Notes: generated from the sequence alone by a model not told the origin. A stretch of DNA of 64,000 bases from Candidatus Moraniibacteriota bacterium (GCA_016699975.1 CP064994.1:554167-618166), one strand, 5' to 3'; shown: positions 11,768 to 61,442, numbered from the stretch's first letter. A program made the numbers and translations.

Positions 11768-13962
11768 ATGAAGATTAACAAATCTTTGTTTGTGTTAATA
11801 CTTTCACTTCTAATGATTGGTAAAATTTCTGCATCTGAAGTAAATGGTCAGGCTCGAGAAATTCTCAATAATCTCTTTCCCTAGAACCCGGAAGAACCCC
11901 TTTTGTAGTAAGTTGTGCTTCGGGATGTGGTCTCCATCTTGGAGAAGATCTCTATGCTCTTGATTTTACTGTTAGTGGAGAATGCCAATCGCCTTCCGGA
12001 GAGCATCCAGCTTTCGGAAAGGAAATTCGTTCTACTCAGAAGGGAGAAGTTATTAAGTCCTATAGCGGAGATAGGAGTGGATATGGGAAATACGTCGAAG
12101 TGCGGCATGCTGTTGTATCCATACGTGATAAACCAGGGGTAGAATTTCAGCTAGTGAGTAAGTATGCCCATGCTGAATCTTTGCAAGTCTCTATTGGTGA
12201 TCACATAAGATCTGGACAGGTTATTGGCCTTATGGGAAATACAGGCAACTTTTCTTCGTCGAGCCCCTGTAACCATCCCGGGACGCATCTTCATTTTGTT
12301 CTTTATTGGGATCGTTATGAGAAAGGAGTATTTAAGGAGAGGGTTGGCGAGAAACCTGTTGTCCTTTTTCCATATAATTATAATGATCTTAATAGGGGTT
12401 CATCAAAATTCTATTCAGAGACTTATGATATTGGAAAATCGGAAGAAATTGCCATGATGCAAAACTGCGATGAGATGTATCCAATATGTCGAGATGACAA
12501 TGGAGATGGAATTGTTGATGGAAGTGGAGGTTCTTCTTCGGACACGGACAAGGGTGGAGGAGGTGCAGAGGATGACTCAAATACTGCTCCTGTTTCATCT
12601 CACAATGCCGATATTACTGTCGAAGACCGAGCGTTTCGTCTCAATCCCGATGGAACTAATAACGGCTCTTCTCTGAAAGCAAACTGTCGTACATGTTTGG
12701 AAGAGGTTCTCACAGTTGGTGAAACCATCAAATATGAAGGCGTTGCTTCTGTTGCAAATGCGAACGTGAGCGATTCTCTCCGACCAGAAAAAAAGGACTC
12801 AAAAAAGATAGAATTCGGATTCTTTTTCTCGGTGAAAAACCAGGATGGTACTACCTACAAAGATTGGTGGCGAGGAGCTGAAATCGGGGTTGATATTGAT
12901 CGGCTCAGAAAAGGAAAGAGTCCTGAATTTTCTTTTCTCTACGAAACTCCCAATCTTCCCGGGAAAAAACTGGAGATGTGGATATGTGCCGATACTGATG
13001 ATGAAGTCTTGGAACCCGAAGAAGGTGATAAACGGAATCCTGTAAGGACTTCCAGGGATTGCAGGGGAAATAATCGATCCAAGATGAAAACCTTTACGAG
13101 CAAGGCAAGGGATTTCGACTATGTTCTCGAAAATGCCGGTATGATCAACGAGCAGAGAGGATATCTCTGGCTGGGCGAATCATACCGTCTTTGGTATGAG
13201 GTACATGCTTCCGGCGCAGATATTCCCATCGAACCCGTTTCAATCCTGATTTCTCGAACGGGTCCAGAAGAGGGAAAGAAATCAAACCTTCTCCTTGCGA
13301 GTCGGACGCTGACACGAGCAGAACTTACTACTGGATCTGTTTTCTTGGATCAACTCAGCGAGGTGTTTTCAGCACCTATGATTCCTGGGACATACTGGTT
13401 TCATGTTTGCGTGCACTCGGGGAAGATGCCTGAATCCAATTCTGAAAACAACTGTCGTCGCTTCCGAAAGGAAGTGCGCGATCCGGATGTCTCCATTACA
13501 CACAGTATGATTCGTTGTCCTGTGTTCACTCCTGTTACTTGGGGACCGCCCTGGAGTTCGAATCCCCAGTATGCACCGCCCTTTGATGAAAAAGGAGCTC
13601 TTGTTATTACTCCTTGGTGTCTCGAGTCTTCCCCAGACTATCTGGAGGTGTTTTTCCGAGGTTCGCAAATACTCTGGGTACACAAAGATGTGTACATTTT
13701 GAACATTGGTACGAATACACTTGTTCGATTCACGGCGGATACCTGCACGGTACCGAGGGAAGGTGGGAGTAAAGAATGGTGTCCCGGAACTGCGACACTT
13801 TTCATTGCTGGCCAATCTGTGGATACTGCACTGTCTGGAAAGAACACGCGCATTCTTGCGTGGATGTGTCGGAAGCCGACCGAGCCGAATGGAACGTGGA
13901 CGTGCGGGTGGCGACTTCAGGAAGCCAGCATACGGGCGCGACAAGGAGAAATGGTGCCTTAA
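11768..13962 (+). CDS. Secreted M23 (LytM-type) metallopeptidase with about 450-aa Cys/Trp-rich C-terminal extension; frame broken near 11872-11884 (apparent 1-nt deletion)
   Basis: Frame 2 encodes signal peptide MKINKSLFVLILSLLMIGKISASEV... and ends at TAG 11882. Frame 1 opens after the stop at 11869-11871 and encodes the M23 domain (CGLHLGEDLYALDF = HxxxD; KSYSGDRSGYGKYVEVRH; GLMGNTGNFSSSSPCNHPGTHLHFVLY) with no in-frame start before Met 12100. Adding one C to the CCC run joins the two frames. Confidence 0.65.
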
Positions 13963-14015
13963 AGAAAGGATGAAAAAATAACGACTGGAAAATGACTGAA
14001 TTCATGGTATTTATT

Positions 14016-14047
14016 CCTCCTGCGGGTGACCGTGGGGAGGTTTTTTT
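14016..14047 (+). terminator. Putative intrinsic terminator (CCTCC-N15-GGAGG then T7)
   Basis: cctcctgcgggtgaccgtggggaggttttttt, located 54 nt downstream of the M23 gene stop. Confidence 0.4.
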
Positions 14048-14126
14048 GTATCTCGTATGAGGGAGGAGAGAAGGCGAAAGAGAAGAAGGCGGACAGAAAG
14101 GTGGGAAAGCTATTCCACGAAGAGAA

Positions 14127-14543
14127 TTATTTCCCCAAGAAAAGGAGAAGTGCTGTTTTGTGAATCATCTCGCGATGGTTTTTCCCTCGGTCTCTCTCCA
14201 AAAAAACCGCGAGCTCGTCAAGTGCGACATCACAAGAGCGCATATGGAGCGCGTTCATTTGCGAAAGAATAGAGAAAACAAGGCACGCCGTCCGCTTGTT
14301 GCCATCGGTGAACGGATGATCCTTGATGAGAAAATAGAGATAAGCAAGTGTTTTCTCGGCCGAGGAAGCGTAGAGCTCATGCCCGAAGTAGCAGCTGTTG
14401 ATGCTCTCGACGATCGCCTCGACCCGTTTCTCTATCCGCGGGACGAGAGGAAAGGACACAAGTCCTTCTTTACGAAGCGTCTCGTATACCTGACAGACGT
14501 TTTTCGAGGTGAGCGGTCGAAATGTTTTTCTTTCCTGCGTCAT
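14127..14543 (-). CDS. doc: Doc-family toxin (Fic/Doc fold, type II TA toxin)
   Basis: Motif HPFTDGNKRTA matches the Doc signature HxFx(D/N)(A/G)NKR (P1 Doc: HIFNDANKRTA). About 138 aa from Met MTQERK. An alternative start at 14582 is possible. Confidence 0.7.
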   Translation of the reverse strand: MTQERKTFRPLTSKNVCQVYETLRKEGLVSFPLVPRIEKRVEAIVESINSCYFGHELYASSAEKTLAYLYFLIKDHPFTDGNKRTACLVFSILSQMNALHMRSCDVALDELAVFLERDRGKNHREMIHKTALLLFLGK

Positions 14544-14721
14544 AGTCGCGAAGGGATTCGAGTATGGATTTCTTTTCGGCAAACTGGCGTTCCAAAACCG
14601 AGCGAAACTCGCGATCCGCCTTTTTCATTTCTTCGGAAGAACTTCCAGAAAAAAGTTGTAGGAAATATTTCAGCATATATTCGTTTCTTCGCCGTTTAGT
14701 ATACGGGAAAATGTTCAACAT
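14470..14721 (-). CDS. Candidate cognate antitoxin (unrecognised family), upstream of and overlapping doc
   Basis: 83-aa ORF immediately upstream of doc on the same strand (MLKYF...SSEEMKKADREFRSVLERQFAEKKSILESLRDYD...). Charged and helical-looking, but no Phd/YefM signature. The 74-nt overlap with doc is unusually long, so start or extent is uncertain. Confidence 0.25.
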   Translation of the reverse strand: MLNIFPYTKRRRNEYMLKYFLQLFSGSSSEEMKKADREFRSVLERQFAEKKSILESLRDYDAGKKNISTAHLEKRLSGIRDAS

Positions 14722-14800
14722 GAAAACGTCTCGCGGCGAGGTCGAGGGAAATCGTTAAGCAGAAGGTGGAAAATAAAAGCGGAAAAAAATGGGGAGCGAA

Positions 14801-17800
14801 TCATGAGGAAATTTTTCCCGTTTTGTTTTGGCGCCGGCGCCAAAAAGCATCGAAGAAGAGAAAGAAGATACAACCACCGAACGTGAGCCCACTGATCAGG
14901 AGCCCTACAGAGAACCATCGCTGCGGGAAGAATTCGATTCTCATCTCGATATCATACGAACCGTCCTCGTTTTTTCGGCACGCAACGCTTTCCTCTTGGC
15001 AGAGTATTTCCGGCTCTACAAACCAGCCGTTTAAGAATCCGTTTAATTTGAAGTGCTTTTCTTCGTCAATTTGACGCGGATGAACCCACGGGATCCAATT
15101 TTTGAGCCAACCGTTTACTGCTTCGTCGTTCAAAAACGCTTTCCATTCGGGATGGAAACTTTCGCTCATCGCGAGATAAAACGGCGTCGTCGCTCCCTGC
15201 ATATGAACGAGCTTCTTTGTCGGGTTCACCAAATCAAAAGCAATCTCGCGCGGCTCTCTGAAGTTTGTTTCTGGATCCGACACGAGGTAGTATCGGTCGA
15301 GAATATCGGGAAGCTCTACGAGAGAAAAGTTGTCGTAACGCGTGACGACATTTGTCTTTTCGTCTCTCGAGTACGAATAGAGCGTGAGAGTAGCTGATGT
15401 TGCTCCCTCGGGAACGGAAATCACTTTCGTGAATGTTTGCCAGGGAGACTCTGCCTCCACACCCTCTTTCTCGAGAGAAATCTTTTCGCTTACCGAAGAT
15501 TTCTTGGAGTCATTGAAAGCGATATGAAACCCTGCTTGCCTTCCGTTCGGACTTTGATAATCAAACGAGAAAAGCGCCGAGGTTTTTTCGCGAACGGGAA
15601 TATCTTTTTGGTTTGTGCAGGCGATGTGGCGTGTGGCAGCGAGCTCAAGAAATCGGTTTCCTTCTGAGGCTCTATTCTCGCCCAACGTCATCTCAAGGAC
15701 GGGGTTATCGTCCGTCGCATTGCAATCCCCGACTTTCTCTTTCCACAAACCTTCTTCGAACGAGGGGTTCTTGATTCGATTTGAAAAATCATGTTCGGGA
15801 TCTTCGTATTTCACCGAAATTTGTCCCGCGGCTCTATCGAGGGGAATCCGAACAAAGGAATCTGTGCGCTCCGATGGTGAGAGAAGTAACGTTGAGTCAT
15901 TGCTCTGGACTGCCGACTCCGGAGCTCGAGCATACAGAGAAAGACTTCCTGAAGAATTGTTAATACTTTCTTCAATATCATTGGTGTGAAATCCGATATT
16001 TTTTGGTGATATTTCTTCAAATAAAGGGTAAACTTTTCTTGAAGGGAAGACTCCTTCTGGAGTCAAAGAAAATTCAGGCTGGTTTTCAAAAGAAGCGCTC
16101 AAAAACTTATACTTTGAAAGACTATTTACTTCCAATTGATAGGAAAAAATTTCTTTAAATGTTCGAATTTCTTCTTTGGACTCTCTGTTAATAAAGTTAG
16201 TAGAGTATTTCAGTTCTTCTTTCGAATCAGAATATTTTGAATCAAGGAATGAATATGTTGATTGATAATCTATTTTTGGTGAAAAGAGACCAAATTTTTC
16301 TTCGGATTGGTAAAACTCTTGTTTCTTAAGATACACTCGGTCAATTGATGAAATGCTTAATAAGTCGAAAAAGAGGGGATCTTGTTGATTGAAAAGGGAT
16401 TGAAGAGTGTCTTGAAAAAGTTTGGTTTCTTTATACGAACCTCCCAAACGAAAGGTATTTATGCTGTAGCTGGAATTTTCATAATTTAATTCGTCCTGAT
16501 GATAGGAAGGAATTACGAGCGATCTTCCTGGACGCTGGTTGGCGTTCTCAATAATTTCGTTTATAACAATGCTTTCCTTATATTTTTCGGGAGAGCTTTT
16601 TTGAAAAAGTGAAATATCTCTTCCAAAAAGAGGCCATGCATAGATACAGTTGGCGATGAGAAATGCGGAAACAAGAATGAAAAAATTTTTGGCTGATACA
16701 AGACTTTTAATTAAGGATAATACTATTGCAAGCAACAGAATTGAAAAAATAAGCAAGATGATTTGTACCTTCGCTGGGTTCCTTATTGTATTTGTAAACC
16801 AGCCCATTTCAAAAGCCTTGGTACCAAATTCTTGATTCACAGTAAGAATATGGAGAAATCCAATAATGAGTATTATGACAATGAGAATCCCATAAAACTC
16901 TGTATTAAGATTCTTGGTTTTTGATTCTTTAAAGTTCTTCGTATTCGTATCTTTTTCTTTTTGAAGGAGTAGAAGTATAAGACAGAGAAGGAATATAAAA
17001 GAATAACCAAAGATGTTTTTTGTTGATATTTGATTATATCCAAGAGTTACTTGTCCATTCCCATTATTTCCAGCAAACCGAAGAGTGTTTATAAGCGAAG
17101 TGGACTTGTAGTTGTGAAGATAATCTTGAATCGACGAAGATCCGGGAAGTGATTCCTTTCCGGAAGATGACACTAAGAAAAGCGGGAGGAATAAAAACGA
17201 AAGAAGAACAATTGAAAGAATAGAAAACACCGAGAGTCTTACTGTGTATTTTAATGATAGTCCCAGTATTACCTTTATTCCCACAAATAAAATAAGTGAA
17301 AGAAAGAGAATAAAGATAACCGGAGGAAGAAATGTTACGGTTAAGAATAAAGTCAGTACCCAAAGAACAGTATTTTTTAGGGAAAATTCTTCCTTATAGA
17401 ATATTTTTATTGAGAAATAAAGAAGAAAAAGAAGTGAAGAATAAACCCAAATTGTTTGACCATTTCTAAAGTCACCAAATATTATTGGGTTTGCTATGGA
17501 AAAAAATCCTGAAACAAATGATATGAGGGAGCTTTTATAAAGTTTATAAGTTACATAGTAAGCGGAGTACATCAGAAGAAACAGTGGAAAGATTCGTAAA
17601 AGAAGAAATTCTCCATGATCATCAAGAAAGGGGATTTTTGTTATTCCAAGTGGGATGATATTTGTCAAAGAAGTTCTTATCGAAGTTCCAAAATTCGCAT
17701 AACTCCAGAGGTAGATAGTCTTATCGGTAAGGATTTGGCGTGAGAGCTGATCGGTATGGGCATAGTCTCCCCAGGCAAGTGGTTCTCCCCTTAAGTCTAT

Positions 17801-17968
17801 AAAAAAAACCGAAGTGGTAAAAAGAAATACGAGAAATAATAATACAACAGGCATGAACCCCTTCACTTTTAGGGGTATGTCATTAAAATATTTTTTTATT
17901 TTTTGCGCGTTCTTCTCCATGAAATTTTGAGCTTTTTCAATGCAGTGCAATGCGTGTAAATCTATCAA
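14801..17968 (-). CDS. Giant (1055 aa) polytopic membrane protein: N-terminal about 14-TM domain, large extracytoplasmic beta-rich domain, C-terminal TM anchor (GT-C / AftD-like architecture, tentative)
   Basis: One long ORF. N-terminal half is highly hydrophobic. C-terminal about 450 aa is soluble (…FLNGWFVEPEI…), followed by final TM FSVGLLISGLTFGGCIFFLFF and RRRQNK. GC content shifts from about 48% (C-terminal domain coding) to about 30-38% (TM domain coding). Confidence 0.65.
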   Translation of the reverse strand: MIDLHALHCIEKAQNFMEKNAQKIKKYFNDIPLKVKGFMPVVLLFLVFLFTTSVFFIDLRGEPLAWGDYAHTDQLSRQILTDKTIYLWSYANFGTSIRTSLTNIIPLGITKIPFLDDHGEFLLLRIFPLFLLMYSAYYVTYKLYKSSLISFVSGFFSIANPIIFGDFRNGQTIWVYSSLLFLLYFSIKIFYKEEFSLKNTVLWVLTLFLTVTFLPPVIFILFLSLILFVGIKVILGLSLKYTVRLSVFSILSIVLLSFLFLPLFLVSSSGKESLPGSSSIQDYLHNYKSTSLINTLRFAGNNGNGQVTLGYNQISTKNIFGYSFIFLLCLILLLLQKEKDTNTKNFKESKTKNLNTEFYGILIVIILIIGFLHILTVNQEFGTKAFEMGWFTNTIRNPAKVQIILLIFSILLLAIVLSLIKSLVSAKNFFILVSAFLIANCIYAWPLFGRDISLFQKSSPEKYKESIVINEIIENANQRPGRSLVIPSYHQDELNYENSSYSINTFRLGGSYKETKLFQDTLQSLFNQQDPLFFDLLSISSIDRVYLKKQEFYQSEEKFGLFSPKIDYQSTYSFLDSKYSDSKEELKYSTNFINRESKEEIRTFKEIFSYQLEVNSLSKYKFLSASFENQPEFSLTPEGVFPSRKVYPLFEEISPKNIGFHTNDIEESINNSSGSLSLYARAPESAVQSNDSTLLLSPSERTDSFVRIPLDRAAGQISVKYEDPEHDFSNRIKNPSFEEGLWKEKVGDCNATDDNPVLEMTLGENRASEGNRFLELAATRHIACTNQKDIPVREKTSALFSFDYQSPNGRQAGFHIAFNDSKKSSVSEKISLEKEGVEAESPWQTFTKVISVPEGATSATLTLYSYSRDEKTNVVTRYDNFSLVELPDILDRYYLVSDPETNFREPREIAFDLVNPTKKLVHMQGATTPFYLAMSESFHPEWKAFLNDEAVNGWLKNWIPWVHPRQIDEEKHFKLNGFLNGWFVEPEILCQEESVACRKNEDGSYDIEMRIEFFPQRWFSVGLLISGLTFGGCIFFLFFDAFWRRRQNKTGKISS

Positions 17969-18995
17969 AGATTTTCAAGTATTTTTGTCTCTGACATTTC
18001 ATGTATTGCAATTGATTGTTTGCTGATATTTCTATGAAACTCCGATACTTTATTATCGTAGCTGATTGGGAGAAATGGAATTCCTGCGAAGTGAGCAGAT
18101 ATTTGAACGTGGTACTGCGGGGCTATAACGTATAGATTCGAGGCATGTTTTTTGAGTGCCAGAATAAACGCAATTGGGTTATATTCGAAATCCGATGCTG
18201 TGATATTCCCATGCTCCTGTTCCAGAGCCTTCATTTTTGAGTAGAGTTTTGGAGCGATAGTTTTGGATTCGAAGACGACAAGAGAAAATTTCTTTGAAGT
18301 ATTTTTCCGAACGAAATTGAAAAGAGTGTTGGTATAGGTCCAAAATTTCTTGTTGGTGAAGCGGCGAAATCCTACGAGTGTTATTGGTTCATGGAAACCG
18401 AGATTCTTCGATATTTCTTCCGCTTCTTTTTCGTAGGCATCGGTCGAAACTTCATCGAGCGAGAAACTAATATCTCGGTCGAGCAGCGTGTTTGCCTTAT
18501 TAAACTTCGAGAAATTCTCAAAAGTTTCCGGGTCTCGCGCCAAAATAAGTTTTGCTGATTTTGCCGCGAGGTAGGCCGATATTCTGCCTAAGAAAGAAGT
18601 GGATGTGTAATATCCTATTCCCAAAAGGTAGACGTTTTTCCTGGAGAGCTTTGAGAAAAGAAATAAAAGCGCGCTCAATACGAATATATTTTTATTGAAA
18701 TCGAGTCCCCATATCCCTCCTCCTCCTATGATGATATTTTTGAACCGAAAAACCCTTTGAGGATACCGACTTTTTCTGAAGAGTTGATGATTGAATAGCT
18801 AAAGTCGTGATGATATGTTCCGAAAATCTTTGGATTCGAGTAGTAAATTTTTACATTCTTTACTCCGTGTTTCGAGAACAGAAGTTGCAGTATTTCCAAA
18901 AGGAGTTCATCGCCATAATTTGTTCCTCCATAATAGCCTATGAGGAACGTATTTTCGAGATTTCTCGAAGAAAAGAATTTTGAAAGATGATTCAT
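17965..18995 (-). CDS. Polysaccharide pyruvyl transferase family protein (CsaB/WcaK-like), split into two ORFs (18995-18726 and 18678-17965) by an apparent 1-nt deletion
   Basis: N-terminal piece carries IGYYGGTNYGDELLLEIL, the PF04230 signature GYYGxxNxGDE. C-terminal piece has ...ILARDPETFE... and ...ITLVGFRRF..., consistent with the central and C-terminal motifs. Frames differ by one position. AT-rich (about 30% GC). Confidence 0.55.
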
Positions 18996-19005
18996 GGATA
19001 TTGTC

Positions 19006-27582: not shown

Positions 27583-27611
27583 AAATTTTTTGTGAGGATT
27601 GTCTCAATCGT

Positions 27612-45220: not shown

Positions 45221-45223
45221 CGA

Positions 45224-46360: not shown

Positions 46361-46712
46361 AAATAGAATTTTAGAGTAGTGTCTTGAGTTGCTTTCTTAA
46401 CAATCTTTATGTCCTACTCTGTGCTTTTGGTGCAGGGAGGTTTATATCCATAGTGCCAAACATTTTTACATGTTTACATGAGGAGAGAAAAAATGTTGAT
46501 TCGGATAAATTTTATTCGTAGAACCGTAAAAACTGCTCGCCGAGGAGATAAAAAAGAATTTTTTGATACACTTTTTTTCACCTTGAAAATTTCTCTTGAA
46601 TTAAAAGAAATTTTGACGATCCTAAAGAATATTCAAATTTTTCTTTTATTTTGTGGATACGAAATTATTGAGAATTATCATCTTCGCTCAGAAGGGGAAT
46701 GCAGGACGATCG

Positions 46713-47222
46713 TTATTCTTCGTGATAAGGGATCTTAGAGATAAATCTTTTGAAAAGCGGTACGACAAACAATGTTTTGTCAAGCCGCTTTTTTATTTGA
46801 ATCATTCCTTCCTCGCTTTCCCACGGTTCTTTTTCTGTTCGAGTTTTCTTTCTTCCTCTACCGGTATATCTCTTTTCTTTTTGTAAGATCTTTTTTCTCT
46901 TCACTCCCTTCTGTCCACACAACAATGCGGACGGGTTTTTGTCGGGATTCGCTGCAAGAATTGTCTGACCCGCGCCAGAGGCGAGTGTGAATGAAAAGGA
47001 ATCAATAACTTCGTTCTCACGAGACACTGTCGCGAAAAATGTTTTGGCGCTTCCGAAATTCAAAACAGAAAAACTCGCATCTTCGGGTTGCGCCGACACG
47101 AAAGAGAGTGACCACCAGTCGTGCCGTGTGGGATCGGCAAGCATCGTTTCTCGCGCAAGGAGCGTGAGAGATGCGGCAAAGAGGCCGATTGCGAGAAAGA
47201 GAATGAGGCGCGTGTCTTTCAT
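46713..47222 (-). CDS. Secreted hypothetical protein
   Basis: Signal peptide MKDTRLILFLAIGLFAASLTLLA. C-terminal region is basic and low-complexity. Confidence 0.4.
   Translation of the reverse strand: MKDTRLILFLAIGLFAASLTLLARETMLADPTRHDWWSLSFVSAQPEDASFSVLNFGSAKTFFATVSRENEVIDSFSFTLASGAGQTILAANPDKNPSALLCGQKGVKRKKILQKEKRYTGRGRKKTRTEKEPWESEEGMIQIKKRLDKTLFVVPLFKRFISKIPYHEE
46753..46797. terminator. Intrinsic terminator hairpin (AAAAGCGG...CCGCTTTTTTATTT), likely bidirectional
   Basis: aaaagcggtacgacaaacaatgttttgtcaagccgcttttttattt, with nested inner inverted repeat GACAAAC/GTTTTGTC. Lies just beyond the stop of the 46713-47222 gene. Confidence 0.45.
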
Positions 47223-47261: not shown

Positions 47262-49333
47262 TTAGGGAAGCTTCTTTCGGTAAACGGCGATATCGTCGGA
47301 AATGTATGGGAGAGTCATCTCTTTCTCTTTTGCGAATTGCGCGGAATCGTAATGTGGATTCACAATCACCGTGTTGACGCGAGTTGCGGCAAAACAGCTT
47401 TGACCTTTCGGTGTGTTCGGAGCCGAAATCATGAGGAGGGTACACTGTTCGCGCGGAGTCGCTTCGTCGGTGTAGCGGCGAAAATAGCCGCGCGAAAGCG
47501 GGTAGGAGTAATCGCGCATGAAAAAAAACTTCATCCATGAGTCGGCAACGATGTAGTTGTGATCTTTGAGAATCCATTCGTCAGGCCGAATTCGTTCGGC
47601 TGCCCAGCGGGAGACAGCAAATGTTTGTACGGCACTTTTTGCGTTGGGCGCTTGAGTCAAAGAGAAAGCATTGTCGAAAAATCCGCCGACGATTGTTGCG
47701 ACGAGAATTGTCGCGAAACTGATCCGGAGAAGTAGGTCGGTTCCATATTGAGGCAAAGGGGTTTCGGATTTTCTCTTGTGGTTTGCAAAGAGAAAAGAAA
47801 AGCAAGCGATGCGAGCAGTATCATTGGGAAATTGGCGTAGGTGCCGATTCTGTTTGAGGGAATGTCGAGGAAAAGTGCTCCCGGAAAGAGCGACATCACA
47901 AGAAGGCTGAATCCCCATCCGAAGGCAATCGCTCCCGAGAGGGTCTTTCGGGCAAAAGAAAAGAGAATAACGAGAAGGCTTACGAGCGCGAGGCCCATGC
48001 GAGCCCCTCCTACCCCTTGTGTAAACTCTGCAAACCCAAGACCTTCTCGGGTCGCTTTGCTTGGTGTGCCGATTGCCGTGTCGATTGATGCAGGATCAAG
48101 ATACGTGGGGAGAGAAATAAAAAATGAAAACAGAAGAACGAGAATGAGAATGGTGAGGGGGAATGGCGAAAAAGCAAGTCGTATCCAGGAGCGCATTTCC
48201 GAGAAGGCAGAGCGGATGTGAAACACGAGGAAAAAGAAAATCGAGAAGAGGACGATAAAGAGCAGGACGAGTGTCGAAAGGTGATGGGTAAAGGCAAGGG
48301 TCGCCCCGACAAAGATGGAGAGTGTCAGGAGAAGCGGATTTTTTTCACGAAGCGCGCGAAAAAGCGCGAGCAAAAAGAGAGGAATGAAAAAGTTTCCGAA
48401 AAGATTTCCGACGACGCCACCGCTCACATATTTTGCTTCGGGAGAGGAAAGAGCCCAGAGCGGCCCCGCCAAAAGAAAAGCGAGGAGGAACGCGCGCTTT
48501 GAAAGATCGTGATTGTGAAAGAGATCTTCCGAAAATCGAAATGCAAGGAGTGCGATCGCAAGCGGTGTGAGCACATTGATTATGAGAAGAAAGAGAGAAG
48601 GAAAAGCCGAGAGAAGCGGGAGGGTGCTGATTTTCGAAAAAGCGGCGAATGGCAGGTGCTCCCCGATGATGAAATCGTCGATTGCTTCTGGCGCAGTGAG
48701 AGTATTACTGCCGTCCGAAAAATTGATGTTTATCTTTTCGTACCGGGGCAATTTTTCGGTGAGTACGATTTTCTGCGCCCAGAACATGTGGTGGCCGAGA
48801 TCGGTCGAAGTGGGGAGAATCGTATTCCACAAGAATGCTCCCTTCATGGTGAGGGTGAGAAAAAAAATGCCGAGAAAGAGAAGTGACTGTCGGCGAGAAA
48901 GGCCGAGGGAAGATTGGGAGGAAGTGAAAGAGTTGGAAGCATCGGCGTTGAGGGGAGTGGTACTTTCCCCTTCTTTTTTTTCGAGCGATATATTGTGTGA
49001 AGAGGGGGGAGAGAAGGTCTGGTGAAGTTTTTGTGACAGGAGTGAAACAATCGATCTATTTCGCAGAAGGAAGAGGCTTGGAATCGCGATCAAAAAAGCC
49101 GACAGGAAAAAGAGGGCTTCTCGGCTGAGGGGAATGTTGAAAAAATGGAGGAGTATCATGCCGGCGTCCATCATGCCGATGCCGAGCGCGAAGGAAAAGA
49201 GGAGCGACTCAAGCGGGAAGAGAGAAAACCGGTGTTGAGATTTTTTGCGAAGCGAAAGGACGAGCCATCCTGGAAGGAAGAACAAAAAAAGAATCGAGAC
49301 GAAAAAAAAGAGAAGTTGGAGGTCGATCGGCAT
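47262..49333 (-). CDS. Polytopic membrane protein (about 690 aa) with C-terminal extracytoplasmic domain, frame broken near 47785-47800
   Basis: 558-aa multi-TM ORF (...TDLGHHMFWAQ...) ends at 47657. The overlapping 218-aa ORF in another frame carries a further TM (LLLRISFATILVATIVGGFF) plus a soluble domain. An apparent 1-nt deletion in the CTCTTTGC run joins them. Confidence 0.55.
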
Positions 49334-49342
49334 AGAAGCGCG

Positions 49343-50488: not shown

Positions 50489-50629
50489 AAAGAGATGAGG
50501 TGATGAGGTATTGAGAATCAGCGTCTGTATATTGTTCGGAACTTGGCTTCTCCCGGAAACATTCGGCGGAGATTTTTTTTGCTCACAGTTTTCTTTGATC
50601 TTTTCCGAAAGAACATTGTTTCGCCTCAC

Positions 50630-51580
50630 TTACTTGGTGTACCGGCGCTTCTTCAGAAAATACATTTGCTCCTCAAGAAGCCGGCGATTCGACTTCACCA
50701 TGTCGGCGAGGAGTGCAAAGACGACGAATTGAAGTCCGACGACAAAGGCGAGCGCACAGAAGAAGAGGTAGTTGCGGTACGGAGAAATTTTGAAGTCCTG
50801 AAAATAGAATCTGAGAAAGACAAGAAAAAGGAGCGCTGAAAATCCCAATAGAACAAACCCTGGAATCCCGAAGAACTTCATGGGGCGTACATCGCGAACA
50901 GCACGCACGATGATGCGCGAACTTTGGCGAATATACTTCGTAACACTTTTTGTCATTTTGGATTTTCGCTCGGCAAAGTAGGTGACTTCGACCGGCACCC
51001 ACAGGATTCGCAAGCCCTTCCCAATTGCATCAATGATGACTTCTTGTGTGTAGGTAAAGTTTTCAAGGAGACTTAGTCTCATGAGCGATTCTCGGCTATA
51101 GGCGCGGAAACCGCAGGTCAGGTCGTGAATCGGCGTCTTCAAAAATTTCGAAATAAGGTGCGCCGCCAAACGGTTGAGTCTCTCTTTGAGAAGTGGAATA
51201 TTTTTGGCAGCATATTTTCCGAAGCGATCGGCGCTCACGATATCCGCCGTTCCTGAGAGAATGGGTTCGATGAGTTCTGGAATATCTTCGGGATCAAATT
51301 GCCCGTCCGCGTCGATATTTACCATGATGTCGGCGCCAACTTCGAGAGCCGCCTCGACCGACGTGCGAAACGCGCGCCCGAGTCCCAGGTTGTGGGGATG
51401 CGAGAAAACGCGCGAAGCACCGGCCTCTCTCGCAATTTTTCCAGTACCATCTTTCGATCCGTCATCCACGACATGGATCAGGACTTCTTCGATTCCCCGA
51501 AAAAATTTCGGGATTTTTTTAATCGTCTCTCCGATTTTTTCGGCTTCGTTGTAAGCGGGAATATTGATAACGAGTTTCAT
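50630..51580 (-). CDS. Glycosyltransferase family 2 (polyprenyl-phosphate sugar synthase-like) with C-terminal TM helices
   Basis: MKLVINIPAYNEAEKI...VVDDGSKDGT...IDADGQFDPED plus 2 TM helices. Confidence 0.85.
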   Translation of the reverse strand: MKLVINIPAYNEAEKIGETIKKIPKFFRGIEEVLIHVVDDGSKDGTGKIAREAGASRVFSHPHNLGLGRAFRTSVEAALEVGADIMVNIDADGQFDPEDIPELIEPILSGTADIVSADRFGKYAAKNIPLLKERLNRLAAHLISKFLKTPIHDLTCGFRAYSRESLMRLSLLENFTYTQEVIIDAIGKGLRILWVPVEVTYFAERKSKMTKSVTKYIRQSSRIIVRAVRDVRPMKFFGIPGFVLLGFSALLFLVFLRFYFQDFKISPYRNYLFFCALAFVVGLQFVVFALLADMVKSNRRLLEEQMYFLKKRRYTK

Positions 51581-52063: not shown

Positions 52064-52075
52064 ACCAGAGTCGTG

Positions 52076-53492: not shown

Positions 53493-54602
53493 AGAGAAAC
53501 TAGGTGAATTCAAACCCCGAAGCCCCTTTTCTGGTATACTCCGGCGTTAACTTCCAAAAACGCTATGAATATGCCAAAAGGAACGTCCATAACCTTCTTT
53601 GAACGAGAGCGAATCGAAAGCTTTCTCCGCATGAAGAAAAAGAAAACATGGATCGCGGAGAAACTTGGAAGAGATTACTCCGTCATCAAGCGAGAGATAC
53701 GAAGAAATTCGAGTCCGCACCTTCCCTATGTTGCCATCCGAGCTGAAGCGTATGCGGAAAGACGAAAGAAAAATACCAACAAAAGAAAACTGGAAAAATG
53801 GCAAAACGAGAAACTGAAAAAGTTTGTCGAAAGCGAACTCCTGAAGGGACATTCACCGGAGCAGATAGCCGGCCGGTTGAAAACATCTCCTCCGAAAAAA
53901 TCTTTCCTCGTGTACGGATACCTCGATAAGTTACGAATCCATCTATGATTACATTTACCGCGGAGAAGGAAGGGTCGGCGGATGGTACAAACATCTGCGA
54001 CGAAAACAGAAGCGGAGACGACCAAAGTTCTCTCGAAAACCGCGAAAAGAGACGATTCCGGATAGAATACCCATTCACGAAAGACCCGCGGTCATTACCA
54101 AGCGTACACACTTTGGAGACTGGGAAACCGATTCCGTGATATTCTCAAAACAGAAGTCAGTACTCTCGGTACAGTACGAGCGAAAAATGAAGCTATGCCG
54201 ATTAAAGAAAGTTCCAAACAAAACAGCGGTCGAAAGCGAACGAGCGATACAGGGACATTTCTCTCGGCTTCCGCAGCAATTGAGGAGAAGTATTACGAGA
54301 GATAATGGAACGGAGAATGTTTTGCACGGAGAAACGAAACAAAAACTTTCTCTTCCTTCCTACTTCTGCGATACCTACAAAAGTTGGCAGAAAGGAGGTG
54401 TGGAAAACTTGAATGGATTGTTACGAGAGTATTTTCCGAAGAAATGCCCGTTTGATAAAATTTCCCAAAAAGAAGTTCGGTCAGTTCAGGACAAACTCAA
54501 CAATCGACCGAGGAAAGCGCTTAACTATTTGACGCCGAATGAAGTTTTTGCCAGGGTACTGGAAAAGGGGCATTAAATTCTTGAACTCACCCTATTTTTC
54601 AC
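53493..54602 (+). mobile_element. IS30-family insertion sequence (about 1.1 kb) with imperfect 20-bp terminal inverted repeats
   Basis: IRL gagaaactaggtgaattcaa (53493-53513) versus reverse complement of IRR gaaaaatagggtgagttcaa (54582-54602). Encloses an IS30 transposase. Confidence 0.65.
53565..54576 (+). CDS. IS30-family transposase (DDE), reading frame broken twice (near 53930-53950 and 54125-54140; both apparent 1-nt deletions)
   Basis: N-terminal HTH ...SVIKREIRRNSS..., GHSPEQIAGRL (WSPEQI signature), HFGDWETDSV, DNGTEN, YFCDTYKSWQKGGVENLNGLLREYFPK, LNNRPRKALNYLTPNEVF. Three ORFs lie in frames 0, 2, 1. Confidence 0.7.
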
Positions 54603-54752
54603 GAAGGGACACGGGAAGTGAAAGTAGAGAGTAGGAAAGAAATAGAGATTGCTTTCTTCAGAACGGTTGTGTAGTTTTTTTTCGAAGTGACTGTGTGAGT
54701 GATTGGATCGTGATATACTATTAATAATATCGTTTCTTTAGCATGGTTCGGA

Positions 54753-55139
54753 ATGAGTATGGATAAAAAAAATTGGTGGTTGTTCGGAATTTTCGGAGGA
54801 CTTCTCATTTTTGCTATCTTTTTCACCGCGGTCAAAATGTTTTTGTTGCGAGACTATTGGGTACAAGGAATGTCGCGATGCGATCCGAGTCGAGAACGGT
54901 GTTTTCTTCGTTCGTGCGAGAATGAAGAGTCAATGTGTCCCGAAGGAGTTTCGACGTTCTTTTACAAAATTGTACAGAAAAAAGCATATGCCGTTCGAGC
55001 GTGCCCGAGCGAGGAAAACGACTGCTCTTTACTTCGGTGTGAACCAGATGAAAAGGATTGCTTTGAAACGTTCTGTTCTTCCGATCATCCCGAAGATATT
55101 CCCGAAGGCGAGAGATGTAGTGAGGAAAAACAAGAATGA
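54753..55139 (+). CDS. Small membrane-anchored Cys-rich acidic protein (12 Cys in about 95-aa ectodomain)
   Basis: TM WWLFGIFGGLLIFAIFFTAV, then ...CDPSRERCFLRSCENEESMCPEG...CPSEENDCSLLRCEPDEKDCFETFCSS.... Confidence 0.4.
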   Translation: MSMDKKNWWLFGIFGGLLIFAIFFTAVKMFLLRDYWVQGMSRCDPSRERCFLRSCENEESMCPEGVSTFFYKIVQKKAYAVRACPSEENDCSLLRCEPDEKDCFETFCSSDHPEDIPEGERCSEEKQE

Positions 55140-55184
55140 TGCTTCCTTGGCGTATCGACCACCATACTTTTCCTGAATAATATT

Positions 55185-55820
55185 GTGAATCATCAGGCGT
55201 TCATGGTTGTCATGGGAGGGCTAGCGGGAGTGATTTCATTATTTGCTTACATCCCTTATATTCTTTCGATTCTTCATGGGAAAACAGTTCCAAGCAAAAG
55301 TACTTGGTGGATCCTCAGCGCTTTGGGAGGAGTGACATTCTTATCTTATCGGGATGCTGGAGGATTCAATACCTCATTTTTTCTTCTAGGGGATGTCATT
55401 GGGTCTTCGGTAGTAGCATTTCTCAGTCTTTTTTATGGTAAGAAAAGTATACAGAAACTCGACATTTTCTGTTTTCTTGGAGCCGCAGCTAGTTTTATTC
55501 TCTGGTTTTTTATAAATGAAAATCCTTCCATTGCCTTCTGTTCCGGCTTGTTCGTCGAAGTCATTGCGATGATTCCTACGATAAGGAAGATCGTGGCCAA
55601 TCCTTTTGAAGAAGATATCGGTGGATGGTTTCTCACTTTTCTTGCCTCGGTTGTCAATAGTTATGCCATTGAAGAGTGGAGCTTTGTAGTTTTTTTCTAT
55701 CCATTTTATGAAGTGGGTATAAATGGTCTCGTCGTTTTTCTTATTTCTTCCGGGAGAAAGAAATTGCTTCGCGTAAATATTCCTTTCATTCGTATGGACT
55801 CAAGTGCTCTTGCTAAATGA
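55185..55820 (+). CDS. Hypothetical 6-TM membrane protein
   Basis: 211 aa with six hydrophobic helices. Its stop lies 8 nt before the SET-domain gene ATG. Confidence 0.5.
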   Translation: MNHQAFMVVMGGLAGVISLFAYIPYILSILHGKTVPSKSTWWILSALGGVTFLSYRDAGGFNTSFFLLGDVIGSSVVAFLSLFYGKKSIQKLDIFCFLGAAASFILWFFINENPSIAFCSGLFVEVIAMIPTIRKIVANPFEEDIGGWFLTFLASVVNSYAIEEWSFVVFFYPFYEVGINGLVVFLISSGRKKLLRVNIPFIRMDSSALAK

Positions 55821-55827
55821 AAGACGT

Positions 55828-56328
55828 ATGTGCCTGCAAAAAGACCTGTATGTTTCACGATCAATGATATCTGGACGAGGTCTTTTCTGTCGAGTAAATA
55901 TTCCTCGAGGAAAGCCAATTTTTGTTATGAAAGGAAGAACGGTCTCTTTCAAGGTTTCGACAAAAAAAGACGCGATGCTTTTTCCCTCGAGAGTTGGCAT
56001 CGGTAAAGATACTTGGATGGAACCCGACATGAAATTTGTCAAATTTATTAATCATTCATGCGAACCGACAGCGGGTATTCGGGGACGAGTAACTTTCGTG
56101 GCTTTGTGCGATATACCAGCAGGAGAAGAAATTACTTTTGACTATTCAATATCTGAAGATAGCCAATGGGAAATGCCGTGCTCGTGTGGTGCGAAAAGCT
56201 GTCGAAAAATTATAAAAGGGGTGCAGAATCTTCCTGAAAGTATTTTCAATTCTTATCTTCCTTTTATACCAAAGTACTTTCAGAAAGTGTACAGAAAATC
56301 GAAGTTCTCCTCGCGCACAAAAAAATAG
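55828..56328 (+). CDS. SET-domain protein (second copy; putative protein-lysine methyltransferase)
   Basis: ISGRGLFCRVNIPRGKPIF...FINHSCEPTAG...AGEEITFDYS...CSCGAKSCRKII: SET core plus post-SET Cys cluster. An upstream GTG at 55804 is also possible. Confidence 0.7.
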   Translation: MCLQKDLYVSRSMISGRGLFCRVNIPRGKPIFVMKGRTVSFKVSTKKDAMLFPSRVGIGKDTWMEPDMKFVKFINHSCEPTAGIRGRVTFVALCDIPAGEEITFDYSISEDSQWEMPCSCGAKSCRKIIKGVQNLPESIFNSYLPFIPKYFQKVYRKSKFSSRTKK

Positions 56329-56390
56329 TTTTCATCAGAAAGAAGTGAGGAGAGTTGAATATCTCTATTTGAATTCTCTCTTTACCCTCT

Positions 56391-58073
56391 ATGGACAACA
56401 TTGGAGATCTCTGTCATTGGGACAGTGCAAAATTTTTCCTCTTTTCAGGGAACGTCTTTGATCCTCTTATTTATTATTCCCATTTCGCCCCTCTCATAGT
56501 CTCTCTTTTGATCGGCGGCTTCGTTCTCTATACTAATTGGAAAAGCGTGGAAAATTTGGCGCTTTTTTTTGTCATGATATTCTTTTCTTTCTGGGTTCTC
56601 ATTGATTCCGTGCTCTGGGCTTCTGAAAAGCCTTCGGTAATCATGTTTGTTTGGTCGGTACAGATATTTCTTGACCTCCTTATTTATGCTGCGGCCGCCC
56701 TCTTTACTTTTGTTTTCATAAAAAAAAGAATTTCCTTTTCACTTCTGATGATCCTTTTTCTTTTCTTTATTCCACTTTTTCTTTTTTCTTCATCACATTT
56801 TAATCTTGAATATTTTGATGTCACAAATTGCGACCGGGAAGCATCGGAAGGATTCCTGTGGAATTATGTGTACACCGTTGAAACGTTCCTTATCGTATGG
56901 ATATTTGTATTCGTGCTCTCCGCTTCTTTTAAAGAGACAGATCGGACTATCAAGAGAAAATATTATTTCTTTCTTGCAGGCATCCTTTCTCTCCTCGTAG
57001 CCTTTTCATTTGGAAATATAGTCGGAAACTTTACCGAAAACTGGTCCTATGGTCAATATGGACTTTTCGGAATGCCTGTTTTTTCCGTATTTCTTTCTTA
57101 CTTGGTAGTCCGTTATAGAATCCTCAGCGTTAAGCTTATCGCCACACAAGTTTTGGTAATTGCGCTGGTAATTCTCATCGGTTCCCAGCTCTTCTTCATA
57201 AATACCGGGAAGATACTCTTAATTTTCATCCTGACATCAATAACGTTTATTCTTGCAGTGATATTTGGGATTCTTCTCATTCGCTCTGTCAACAATGAAG
57301 TGCGCAGAAAAGAAGAGTTGCAGCGCCTTACCGATGATCTTGCTGAGGCAAATGCGGAGCTTCGACGACTTGACGAGTCGAAAACAGAGTTCATTTCCAT
57401 CGCTTCGCACCAACTGCGCACCCCCTTGAGTGCCATCAAGGGATTCGTTGCGCTGCTTGCCGATGGTTCATACGGCACGCTTCCGAAGACGGCCGAAGAT
57501 ATTGTGAAAAGAGTATCAATCGCGACCGAGCGACTCATTCGCTTGGTTGAAAATTTGCTCAATATTTCTCGGATGGAGGCGGGTCGCCTCGAGTACCGGT
57601 ACACGGAAGTTGATTTTTCGGATGTTTTGTTTGAACTCAGAGATTCTTTTTCGGTACTTGCTTCGGAAAAGGAAGTAGTGATTTCCTTTGACATTCCCGA
57701 GCGAGGAGTGATGCCGTGCTTTCTTCTTGATCGCGATAAAATGATTGAGGTGATTTCCAATCTTATAGATAACGCGCTCAAGTATACGCCTCATGGTTTT
57801 GTGCGCGTGAGAGCAGAGCTTCTTTACGATGCTGTACGCATTTCCGTAACCGATACCGGGATGGGGTTCTCGCCAGAGATGAAACCGCTCCTCTTCCAAA
57901 AATTCTCGCGCGGCAGGCATGCTGAACGATTTGATACGAATGGAAGCGGCCTCGGCCTCTATGTGGGAAAGAGAATGGTGGAGGCGCAGGGCGGAAAGAT
58001 TTGGGCAACGTCAGAAGGAGAAGGGAAGGGATCTTCGTTCTTCGTAAGTTTCCCGATCAAAAGAGCAGAGTAA
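56391..58073 (+). CDS. Sensor histidine kinase with about 8-TM N-terminal sensor domain (HisKA plus HATPase_c)
   Basis: H-box SHQLRTPLSAIKGF. N-box VISNLIDNALKYT. G-boxes DTGMGF and GSGLGLYVGKRM. A coiled-coil linker precedes HisKA. No response regulator is adjacent in the window. Confidence 0.85.
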   Translation: MDNIGDLCHWDSAKFFLFSGNVFDPLIYYSHFAPLIVSLLIGGFVLYTNWKSVENLALFFVMIFFSFWVLIDSVLWASEKPSVIMFVWSVQIFLDLLIYAAAALFTFVFIKKRISFSLLMILFLFFIPLFLFSSSHFNLEYFDVTNCDREASEGFLWNYVYTVETFLIVWIFVFVLSASFKETDRTIKRKYYFFLAGILSLLVAFSFGNIVGNFTENWSYGQYGLFGMPVFSVFLSYLVVRYRILSVKLIATQVLVIALVILIGSQLFFINTGKILLIFILTSITFILAVIFGILLIRSVNNEVRRKEELQRLTDDLAEANAELRRLDESKTEFISIASHQLRTPLSAIKGFVALLADGSYGTLPKTAEDIVKRVSIATERLIRLVENLLNISRMEAGRLEYRYTEVDFSDVLFELRDSFSVLASEKEVVISFDIPERGVMPCFLLDRDKMIEVISNLIDNALKYTPHGFVRVRAELLYDAVRISVTDTGMGFSPEMKPLLFQKFSRGRHAERFDTNGSGLGLYVGKRMVEAQGGKIWATSEGEGKGSSFFVSFPIKRAE

Positions 58074-58177
58074 AAGTTTGGAATTTTCTTCCACCAAGCC
58101 CCTTCTCTTTCTGAGGCGATTGGGCTCATGGAAACGAAAAACACCTCTCTCTACAAGAGGCATTTCTTCTTTTCTTC

Positions 58178-58253
58178 TGGTGCGCTCGGCAGGAATCGAA
58201 CCTGCGGCCTTCTGGACCGGAACCAGACGCTCTCTCCACTGAGCTACGAGCGC
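58178..58253 (-). tRNA. tRNA-Arg (anticodon CCG), CCA-encoded
   Basis: GCGCTCGTAGCTCAGTGGAGAGAGCGTCTGGTTCCGGTCCAGAAGGCCGCAGGTTCGATTCCTGCCGAGCGCACCA. 7-bp acceptor, D-arm GCTC/GAGC, anticodon stem TCTGG/CCAGA, loop TTCCGGT, T-arm GCAGG TTCGATT CCTGC. Confidence 0.85.
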
Positions 58254-58341
58254 AACTTTTGGGCAGTATACTTTCTTTCGGGGCTATTGTACAATATTTT
58301 ACAAGGGTCAAAGAGCCCTCGCCCCCGTTTCCCGAAGGAAT

Positions 58342-59130: not shown

Positions 59131-59209
59131 ACTGGTTTTTCTCGCTTCTTGCGCGCTTTTTCTGAACGCGCTAGGATTTTGAATCACTTTCTCTCATTTT
59201 TTTCTTCTT

Positions 59210-60543
59210 ATGGACAAACAGGAACGAACTCTCATTCATGAGACGCCACAACGAGCGGGGGAGCGCGTTCGACTTCTGGGATGGGTCAATATGCGTCGGG
59301 ATCATGGCAAGATTCTCTTTCTCGATCTTCGTGATCGGACGGGAGTGGTGCAGGTTGTCGTAATTCCGGATCACGAGGAGGCATACGAAGCGGCGCGCGC
59401 GGCAAAGAATGAATGCGTTATCGAGGTTTTCGGTACCGTCAAAGTCCGACCCGGAGGCGCCGCACGCATCGGAATCTTGGGTGGCATTGAAATAGAAGCC
59501 GATTCGATCTCGATCATTTCTTCCCCGAGAATCCGCTTCCGTTTGAAGTAAATGAAGGGAGCTTGGAGGAGCTCCACTTGGAAACACTTCTCAACAATCG
59601 CATATTTTCCCTTCGGAATCGAAATATTCAAGCAATTTTTCGTCTCTACGGAATTCTCCTCGAGTCCTATGCCGAGGCGCTCCGAACGCGCGGCTTTCTC
59701 GAGATCAAAACGCCGAAAATCGTGAGTGCGGCGACGGAGGGAGGTGCGAACTTCTTTAAGATAAAATATTTCGATCGCGACGCTTACCTTGCGCAAAGCC
59801 CGCAATTTTATAAGCAGGCGGGCGCTACCGTTTTTGAACGTGTCTTTGAAATCGGTCCGGTCTTTCGGGCGGAACCGCACTTTACGACACGACACGTAAA
59901 CGAATACATCAGTCTCGATGCCGAAATGGCTTTTATCGAGAACGTGGGTGATGTTATGGACGAACTCGAAGGCATTGTTGCGGACGTTTTCTCAATGCTT
60001 GCGGAAAAGGGGAAGAGCGAACTGGCGCTCTGGGATGTTTCGCTTCCAGCGGCGGTTCCTATTCCGCGCATAAAACTGACTGAAGCTTTGCATATTCTGG
60101 AAAAAGAGTATGGAAAAAAGATGGAAGGCGGTGAGATCGATATTGATCCGGAAGGAGAGCGACTGATTGGAGAATATGTGAAGAAGGTGTTTGACTCAGA
60201 TTTTGTTTTTTTGACCCATTATCCGACTGCTATTCGTCCGTTTTATACGATGCCGGGACCTGATCCGCATTTTACGGAGAGCTTTGACCTCCTCTTTCGT
60301 GGTCTCGAAATGGTGACCGGCGGGCAACGCATTCACGAGTATCGTCGACTTGTCGATTCCATCAAATCACGCGGACTCGTGCCCGATGATTTTTCGAGTT
60401 ACCTCGACGTCTTTCGTTACGGTGCGCCGCCTCATGGTGGATGGGGCGGGGGATCGGAACGCACGATTCAACAACTCCTGGGTCTCCCGACCGTGAAGCA
60501 GGCTGTTCTCTTTCCGCGCGACGTGAAACGCCTCGCGCCGTGA
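59210..60543 (+). CDS. aspS: Aspartyl-tRNA synthetase, archaeal/eukaryal type (class IIb), frame broken at C4 59523-59526
   Basis: N-terminal OB domain ...VRLLGWVNMRRDHGKILFLDLRDRTGVVQVV.... After the break: PENPLPFEVNE..ETLLNNRIFSLRNRNIQAIFRL, motif 2 GPVFRAEPHFTTRHVNEYISLDAEMAF, motif 3 GAPPHGGWGGGSERTIQ. Adding one C restores about 445 aa. Confidence 0.8.
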
Positions 60544-60639
60544 AGGAATGTTTTGACAAAGCATTCTTCTTTTTGGTATGGTTTGGGAGTTCCGATCACT
60601 CATTTCCTTAAAAATACGGAAAATCAAGAGAGGTGTTCC

Positions 60640-61442
60640 ATGACTTCGTTGACATTGGGTACTCAGATTGCTGAAGGAAAGACAAAGCGTGTTCTTTCAA
60701 CTCCAGAGGAAGGACTTGTGCTGTTTTTGCTTTCTTGAAAAATTGCGGAGTTCCGGTTGCGTTTATCGAACAAATTTCGGACCGAAGCTTCTCTGCTCCT
60801 TATTGCGACATGATTCTCCTCGAGGTTGTGGCGCGACGATATGCTGTGGGAAGTTTCCTGGATCGCTTTCCTCACCTAAAACCAAAGAAAGGCGAACCTC
60901 CTTTTCGTTTTGATCGGCCTCTTATAGAGTTCTTTTTGAAAACTACTCAAGGGGTGATACTGAATCGCGAGCGAAAGCGTATCGGAGTGCTTCCAGATGA
61001 TACTCGGGAAGTTACAAGACGAAAGCCAGTCGATGATCCGCTTATTTTTGACCCTCAGGATCTAAATTGGAAACTGTATCATCCAAAGATTCCGACTGGC
61101 GAGAGAGATTCAGATCTGAACTTCTCCGTACGGAGAAGTGATATTTTGCCGGAACACATTACGGCACAGACGATATTTGAGACAACGACAAAAGTCTTTA
61201 TGCTCCTCGAGGAGGCATGGAAGAGGCTTGGATGTCGTCTTGTTGATTTCAAAATTGAATATGGAATCGACACTGAGGGGAATCTTTTAATTGCTGATGT
61301 CATTGATAATGATGCGTGGCGCCTGAGAACACAGAATTGGGAAGAGCTGTCGAAGCAGCGCTTTCGAGACGGTGAAAACATGGAAACAATCGGGGAGCTC
61401 TATCAATATGTAGCGGAGCTTTCGAGAAGACTAAAGCTGTAG
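60640..61442 (+). CDS. purC: SAICAR synthetase-like (PurC family), frame broken at T5 60724-60728; appears to lack about 28 residues of the N-domain relative to E. coli PurC
   Basis: MTSLTLGTQIAEGKTKRVLSTPEEGLVL (GKTK motif), then after the shift ...EVVARRYAVGSF..., ...LVDFKIEYGID..., ...RLRTQNWEELSKQRFRDG... (PurC C-domain motifs). Compared by eye with E. coli PurC, the DTSAGDG...KG..N segment between LVL and the next helix is missing. Confidence 0.6.

Follow-up and report, generated by a model that had tools for sequence, protein, structure and literature searches.

Nanopore assemblies are reportedly prone to homopolymer indels, a problem that Watson and Warr are said to have described in 2019. 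Homopolymer lengths also change by biological routes: the contingency loci of Neisseria, Haemophilus, and Campylobacter show slipped-strand phase variation of surface-polysaccharide genes, the classic tracts being longer than 5 to 6 nucleotides (nt), and insertion sequence (IS) elements of families other than IS30 use slippage on A-runs; frameshifting is not known from IS30-family elements. Here, we consider the frame breaks in a 64,000-nt stretch of DNA (hereafter, the window) from a Candidatus Moraniibacteriota bacterium (GCA_016699975.1 CP064994.1:554167-618166). The original prediction, made from the sequence alone, had placed breaks in 11 genes, including several surface-glycan genes, an IS30 transposase, aspS, and a purC-like gene, and had read all of them as single-base deletions produced by systematic homopolymer under-calling. 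In all likelihood, the breaks are residual homopolymer consensus errors of a low-coverage Nanopore assembly, with the exception of that in the purC-like gene, which is a real remnant. They are an artifact of a known kind, not a biological feature.

The source of the window, CP064994, is the metagenome-assembled genome (MAG) Hirt_18-Q3-R61-65_MAXAC.378_cln, a single circular contig of 1,048,819 bp (Singleton et al. 2021, PMC8012365, Supplementary Data 3), classified within the Moranbacterales, family UBA1568 (PMC8012365). Its depth is 10.93x for Nanopore and 5.38x for Illumina reads (PMC8012365, Supplementary Data 3), and it was assembled with CANU from the Nanopore reads and polished with Racon, two rounds of medaka (r941_flip213), and a last Racon round with Illumina reads (PMC8012365). 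In short, the source assembly had modest depth and was built on long reads that are prone to error. The 80 aspS relatives that we fetched from GTDB genomes likewise point to Candidatus Moraniibacteriota (Patescibacteria), the best match to a GTDB representative being 80% identical in amino acids. The window has a G+C content of about 48% and is coding dense, with about 90% of the DNA coding, and its intact open reading frames (ORFs) are identical to NCBI proteins QQS20496.1 to QQS20541.1 (locus tags IPL87_02880 onwards).

One-base differences between the window and independent assemblies

The window was compared with near-identical contigs from other data sets, recovered by exact-protein look-ups. 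These comparators derive from at least four sequencing data sets and include Logan assemblies of SRR11674037 and SRR15021097 and the ENA assemblies ERZ27239125 (MEGAHIT-style contig names) and ERZ15185987 (SPAdes-style names); together they allow DNA comparison over 41.8 kb of the window, at 99.2 to 100% identity. Exact look-ups of the ORFs at 61486-62655 and 28714-30612 (both taken from longest-ORF starts), and of P0157, a second IS30 copy in the MAG, returned no match. Among the contigs from SRR11674037, L001 is 100% identical to the window (54564-58182), and L084 (26307-37581) and L089 (41470-53528) differ from it by 0.3 to 0.4% single-nucleotide polymorphisms (SNPs). Closely related strains may be mixed in this sample, or the window itself may contain some substitution errors.

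Across the 41.8 kb, the window carries 13 single-base indels of its own, 10 deletions and 3 insertions. Every one of these DNA-verified indels falls in a homopolymeric run of at least 4 bases, although such runs account for only 10.4% of the bases compared (p ~1.6e-13). Twelve of the indels are within coding sequence, in genes that the comparators have intact. The full tally comes to 15 frame-relevant events, in 13 genes and with one intergenic event, of which 11 are deletions and 4 are insertions. The extra bases are in the G6 of the O-antigen-ligase-like gene (Oag), the A6 of the IS30 transposase, the C8 at 40730, and the T8 at 50573, so that over-calls account for about a quarter of events, three of the four being in runs of 6 to 8. 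The prediction that all events are deletions, with a bias in one direction, is contradicted by these four.

The residual indel rate is about 0.3 per kb, and the frequency of events per run seems to rise with the true length of the run, from about 2% at length 5 to about 6% at 6 and about 9% at 7, all of these being based on small numbers. The run-length spectrum of the window is normal when set against the corresponding loci of 35 relatives, and the 7- to 8-nt runs in L001 are equal in length to those of the window, so we rejected a blanket compression of long homopolymers, and with it the systematic under-calling that had been proposed. The errors are scattered residual consensus errors, with a per-run rate that seems to rise with run length, rather than a uniform under-call. 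No common sequence motif, which would be a sign of methylation-linked error, was evident by eye around the junctions.

In exact protein look-ups, the intact forms were confined to Logan and ENA sequences, on up to four contigs each, and the fragments to the NCBI MAG. Where a site is covered by multiple independent assemblies, these agree with each other and the window differs from them (four of four for GT4, three of three for UPF0104, two of two for Oag, and two of two for aspS). Every tested break except that in purC is absent from between one and four independent accurate-read assemblies. Two marks of Nanopore error, single-base indels confined to homopolymers and their absence from accurate-read assemblies, are both present. 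We infer that the differences are errors and not mutations private to the strain.

Several points weigh against this conclusion. The comparators are other molecules, differing from the window by 0.2 to 0.8% SNPs, so that private strain mutations are formally possible. The share of nonsynonymous SNPs is higher in broken genes (15 of 26) than in intact genes (14 of 42), a difference that is not significant and comes from few SNPs. The events at 35418, 47793, and 50573 have one DNA comparator each, although further Logan and ENA sequences do hold intact versions of the second GT-C paralog and of the membrane protein. The break in the M23 peptidase lacks a near-identical comparator and rests on two distant homologues, and no short runs were found at length 8, among only about 17 compared.

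The first two of these points also favor real and recent pseudogenization, in which the strain would have acquired many one-base slippage mutations, and its glycan cluster, aspS, and other genes would be decaying. This is, however, very unlikely. Substitution divergence in the broken genes (0.24%) equals that in the intact genes (0.25%), and no nonsense or multibase lesions, whether stop mutations or larger deletions, were seen in the broken genes apart from the purC-like one; the mixed lesions and excess substitutions of relaxed selection are thus wanting everywhere but in that gene, from which about 35 residues are missing. About one-quarter of the genes would each have to bear a single lesion, invariably a homopolymer indel of 1 bp, and the three uncompensated indels within 43 nt of Oag do not fit such a process. 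The gene for aspartyl-tRNA synthetase, aspS, is the only one of its kind seen in the window and should be indispensable. Moreover, the affected genes are intact in every independent assembly: none of the lesions in GT4, UPF0104, the second GT-C paralog, Oag, the membrane protein, aspS, the pyruvyl transferase, the SET-domain gene, or the small ORF is shared, and only the purC-like gene has its lesion in common with another assembly. The matching MAG has just 11x Nanopore and 5x Illumina coverage. Assembly error rather than pseudogenization, as originally proposed, is accordingly the better account of 10 of the 11 listed genes, the purC-like gene being the one for which it fails.

Frame breaks in individual genes

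Near-identical independent assemblies bear out a single missing base in five of the genes that had been named. In the GT4 glycosyltransferase gene (26411-27582, plus strand), the junction at 26603-26608 is A6 in the window and A7 in all four comparators (L084, L085, L086, and L087). The 390-amino-acid (aa) protein predicted from the repaired gene was found exactly in another assembly, and the Glyco_transf_4 profile aligns over positions 2-170 of 170, across the junction. The spacer at the GT4 stop codon (27581-27585) shows an A5/A4 difference only in L084, L085 and L087 being the same as the window, and this is probably a real strain polymorphism. In the UPF0104 (LPG_synthase_TM) gene (27612-28591, plus strand), the window has T5 at 27902-27906, and L084, L085, and L087 have T6. 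The repaired gene matches LPG_synthase_TM over positions 2-299 of 302, crossing the junction; the intact protein is 326 aa, and NCBI holds only a fragment of 174 aa (QQS20508.1). The second GT-C paralog (PMT_2/GT39-like; about 34410-36076, plus strand) has T5 at 35418-35422 where L084 has T6. Its product is an intact 555 aa in three Logan and ENA sequences and is divided in NCBI between QQS20512.1 (366 aa) and QQS20513.1 (189 aa).

The break in aspS, which encodes a nondiscriminating AspRS (59210-60543, plus strand), lies at 59523-59526, where the window has C4 and both L002 and L090 have C5. All 80 relatives align in frame 2 to 59521-59527 and then in frame 1 from the very next residue. The intact 444-aa form is present in Logan and ENA, and NCBI has QQS20537.1 (113 aa, "hypothetical") and QQS20538.1 (326 aa, "aspartate--tRNA(Asn) ligase"). 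In the membrane protein gene (47262-49333, minus strand), the break that had been placed at about 47788 is at 47793-47796, where A4 on the window strand (T4 on the coding strand) stands against a run of five in L089. The protein is 690 aa and intact in two Logan sequences, and in NCBI it is split into QQS20526.1 (558 aa) and QQS20525.1 (132 aa).

The pyruvyl transferase gene (17965-18995, minus strand) also lacks one base, as predicted, but at another site. At 18737-18741, the coding strand reads AAAAA in the window and AAGAAA in L093 (Logan SRR15021097, 99.5% identical), and the repaired protein matches Pfam PS_pyruv_trans over positions 1-280 of 280, unbroken over the junction. No single insertion within 18679-18725, the range originally given, restores the frame. 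Another contig, L083, ends 230 nt before the junction. The distance of this junction from its range is 12 nt; those at 27902-27906, 42288-42293, 59523-59526, and 60724-60728 had been located exactly, and others to within 1 nt (11879-11881, 26603-26608, and 35418-35422). The expectation that inserting one base would yield a continuous protein of the family is upheld by the Pfam domains that span the junctions of GT4, UPF0104, and the pyruvyl transferase, and it breaks down for Oag, IS30, and purC.

The Oag gene (Wzy_C; 41655-43042, plus strand) had been explained by a single deletion in G6; it contains three errors, between 42288 and 42330, on which L088 and L089 agree. The G6 at 42288-42293 is one base too long (G5 in the comparators), and the T4 runs at 42314-42317 and 42327-42330 are one base short each (T5), for a net shift of -1 (+1, -1, -1). 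The intact protein, P0003, reads PHPNILGGFLASTLIFGLFFLSGARTK in this region. Lengthening G6 to G7 was rejected as a repair: the DNA has three indels, and the resulting product is absent from the collection and differs from P0003 over 12 residues.

Each listed gene does continue in another frame, and the breaks that had been listed are present in the sequence, but four events had been missed (38467, 40730, 46935, and 50573). In the SET-domain gene (37807-38562, plus strand), A5 at 38467-38471 corresponds to A6 in L088, and the shift swaps the last 4 residues for a false tail of 31 residues, giving 251 aa rather than 224 aa. The 224-aa form is found on three Logan and ENA contigs, and the 251-aa form is confined to NCBI (QQS20515.1). 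Near the 3' end of the gene at 40126-40779 (plus strand), the window has one base too many, C8 at 40730-40737 where L088 has C7; four Logan and ENA contigs carry the 213-aa form, and only NCBI carries the 217-aa form (QQS20517.1). A small gene ending at 47222 (minus strand) has A5 on the coding strand at 46936-46940 and A6 in L089. Its true product, 121 aa, is encoded on four Logan contigs, and the false 169-aa ORF of the window (46713-47222) is NCBI QQS20524.1. The fourth event is intergenic: between the stop of the gene at 50630-51580 and the ATG of the next gene at 50488, the window has T8 at 50573-50580 and L089, the sole comparator, has T7, a difference that reflects either one base too many in the window or true polymorphism.

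Gene content differs between strains where the glycan cluster ends. L088, from the SRR15021097 strain, diverges wholly from the window just past the GT gene at 45224-46360 (from window 46380-46403 onwards; L088 9182-9522) and carries a different gene there; L089, from SRR11674037, remains collinear with the window at this point.

Many of the affected genes make cell-surface polysaccharide (GT4, GT-C, the Wzy-like gene, and the pyruvyl transferase), some of the tracts are of G or C (G5/G6 and C7/C8), and one intergenic difference is T7/T8, features that would suit phase-variable contingency loci, in which surface-glycan tracts slip often and the assembly happened to capture "OFF" variants. Such an origin is nonetheless highly improbable. 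The window consists mostly of glycan genes, which makes their enrichment trivial, and aspS, the IS30 element, the SET-domain gene, and small hypothetical genes are affected likewise. Most of the tracts are 5 to 6 nt in length, and the same "ON" length occurs at every site in all independent assemblies, drawn from at least four data sets. Tract length is constant among assemblies at the sites covered more than once: the only indels that distinguish the short-read assemblies from each other are at the intergenic position 27581 and at 61277 in the purC remnant, where real indels are plausible because selection would tolerate them in a spacer or a remnant. It is a long shot that a minority of the differences, namely the Wzy-like G5/G6, the C7/C8 at 40730, and the T7/T8 at 50573, mark truly hypermutable tracts, of which the Nanopore consensus caught a real minority variant; the surface-glycan cluster of this Patescibacteria symbiont would then contain switches of the contingency type.

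Two genes were judged from protein homologues. The M23 peptidase gene has its junction in TTTCCC at 11876-11881 (plus strand), where the window is a base short, most probably within the CCC at 11879-11881. Its upstream ORF starts at 11768 in frame 2, with a signal peptide ahead of ..ILNNLFP*, and the downstream ORF, in frame 1, extends to 13962. The homologues P0277 and P0278 (60% and 36% identity) have a signal peptide followed by ..NNFYLPLEPGG.. over the junction, and tblastn places them in frame 1 from 11875. These homologues support the single missing base that had been proposed. The NCBI version of this peptidase is 645 aa and lacks the signal peptide.

For the IS30 transposase (53565-54576, plus strand), the two junctions and two deletions that had been described are replaced by one junction and one extra base: the window has A6 at 53895-53900, and its relatives require A5. 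P0156, a 336-aa protein of 94% identity, reads ..TSPPKNLSSCTDTSISY.., as does the second copy in the MAG (P0157), and this corresponds to the window minus one A. A repair assuming two deletions produced a protein of 337 aa reading ..PPKKIFSSC.., where the relatives, at 336 aa, read ..PPKNLSSC.., and was discarded. In the second copy, which has 320 aa and is annotated as an IS30 transposase, some stretches are frame-shifted when set against the 336-aa consensus. The short-read contigs L089 and L001 stop 37 nt before the start of IS30 and 12 nt before its end (53528-54564), as expected for a multicopy repeat.

Because the frame breaks sit on homopolymers, they could in principle be real and be decoded into full-length proteins by programmed ribosomal frameshifting or transcriptional slippage. 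We regard the probability of this as close to negligible: the orthologues at 94 to 100% identity have a single frame (the 336-aa IS30 protein, GT4, AspRS, and Wzy), and the directions of the shifts are mixed. Nor is there a conserved two-frame arrangement in IS30, whose relatives at 72 to 94% identity are single ORFs of 334 to 338 aa.

The purC-like remnant

The purC-like (SAICAR synthetase) gene at 60640-61442 (plus strand) departs from the pattern of the others. Its frame is broken at T5 (60724-60728), and the MEGAHIT contig L090 has the same T5 and the same split into 32 aa and 210 aa; because an independent contig has the same sequence and the same split, the break is not an assembly error. 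When the gene is repaired by one base and aligned to SAICAR synthetases in the PDB, query residues 5-24 correspond to chain residues 11-30 and query residues 28-101 to chain residues 66-134, which leaves a gap of about 35 residues at the junction. The one-base repair that had been predicted for this gene was therefore abandoned, since the split is shared and those residues would still be lacking. A third assembly, L092, has an additional change from G4 to G3 at 61277. The gene looks like a real remnant that is decaying in the population, and its lesion in an independent assembly, together with the further frameshift in a third strain, counts in favor of real pseudogenization.

The best matches of the purC-like product are to the SAICAR-synthetase domain of animal bifunctional PAICS/ADE2 proteins (4ja0 and 2h31; E ~1e-22 to 1e-24). 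Matches to bacterial PurC structures are at E ~1e-13, and an insert of about 40 residues is present. In none of the 80 loci from relatives does purC adjoin aspS. Since this gene is truly degraded, not every "pseudogene" in the window should be reannotated as intact, contrary to what had been recommended.

Consequences and comparison with known systems

Residual consensus error would account for the remaining breaks as follows. About 11x Nanopore R9.4.1 coverage with about 5x Illumina polishing would leave some 0.3 one-base indels per kb in the consensus, nearly all in homopolymers with a true length of 5 to 7, mostly one base short and in some cases one base too long. With about 90% of the DNA coding, almost every such error would split a gene or add a false tail, and the annotation pipeline would then have deposited the pieces as separate proteins. 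The three indels within 43 nt of Oag and the differently frame-shifted stretches of P0157 fit a local failure of the consensus.

The biological weight of these breaks is very small, the genes being almost certainly intact in the organism, and their cost falls on databases. NCBI annotated the pieces as ordinary proteins, not as pseudogenes, and its nr collection now contains fragments of aspS, of the GT39-like gene, and of the membrane protein, the false 169-aa ORF, the false tails of QQS20515.1 and QQS20517.1, and a truncated M23 peptidase. A rate of about 0.3 per kb implies roughly 300 such errors in the 1.05-Mb genome. For CP064994 and similar low-coverage Nanopore MAGs, this distorts the counts of genes and pseudogenes, metabolic reconstruction, and protein-family statistics. 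Blind one-base repair is unsafe: one of the split genes is truly degraded, and two others need a different repair from that proposed.

Other features of the window were observed along the way. A further break is possible near 1782 (window 1636-2968), where an ORF beginning MRFDSL.. in frame 1 encodes an N-terminal transmembrane helix. An ORF in frame 2 at 1811-2968, with a C-terminal transmembrane helix and thus a Wzz-like layout, seems to continue it if a base is removed near TTTCC at 1779-1783. A Pfam search with this candidate gene (1636-2968) gave no match, and no comparator covers the site. The G+C content dips to 33% at 16001-18000, against about 48% in the rest of the window, inside a 1,055-aa ORF (14801-17968, minus strand) that has no Pfam match; this region may be foreign DNA or encode a low-complexity surface protein. 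Finally, the neighboring genes at 9382-10245 and 10855-11379 resemble a local duplication in that they share a near-identical N-terminal segment (..FFGGWLFFRGQNETVEE..); the second was found in the NCBI MAG alone.

As in the pseudogenes of reduced or decaying bacterial genomes, neighboring ORFs in the window are fragments of one family, and the purC-like gene fits that class through its shared lesion, its lost internal segment, and its further frameshift. The other broken genes differ from such pseudogenes in having lone 1-bp homopolymer lesions with no extra substitutions and in being intact elsewhere. The contingency loci of Neisseria and similar bacteria have in common with the window frame-changing differences in homopolymer length in glycosyltransferase and ligase genes; in contrast to those loci, the window has short tracts, its housekeeping and mobile-element genes are affected just as much, and lengths are constant among independent assemblies. 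The closest likeness is to the homopolymer errors of R9.4.1 reads, familiar from long-read MAGs with fragmented ORFs, with which the window shares one-base indels confined to homopolymers, a majority of deletions, adjacent ORFs in neighboring frames, an apparent increase in the rate per run with length, and a source built with Nanopore reads, CANU, and medaka r941 under thin Illumina polishing. Nothing essential differs between them; coverage determined both the rate, about 0.3 per kb, and the proportion of over-calls.

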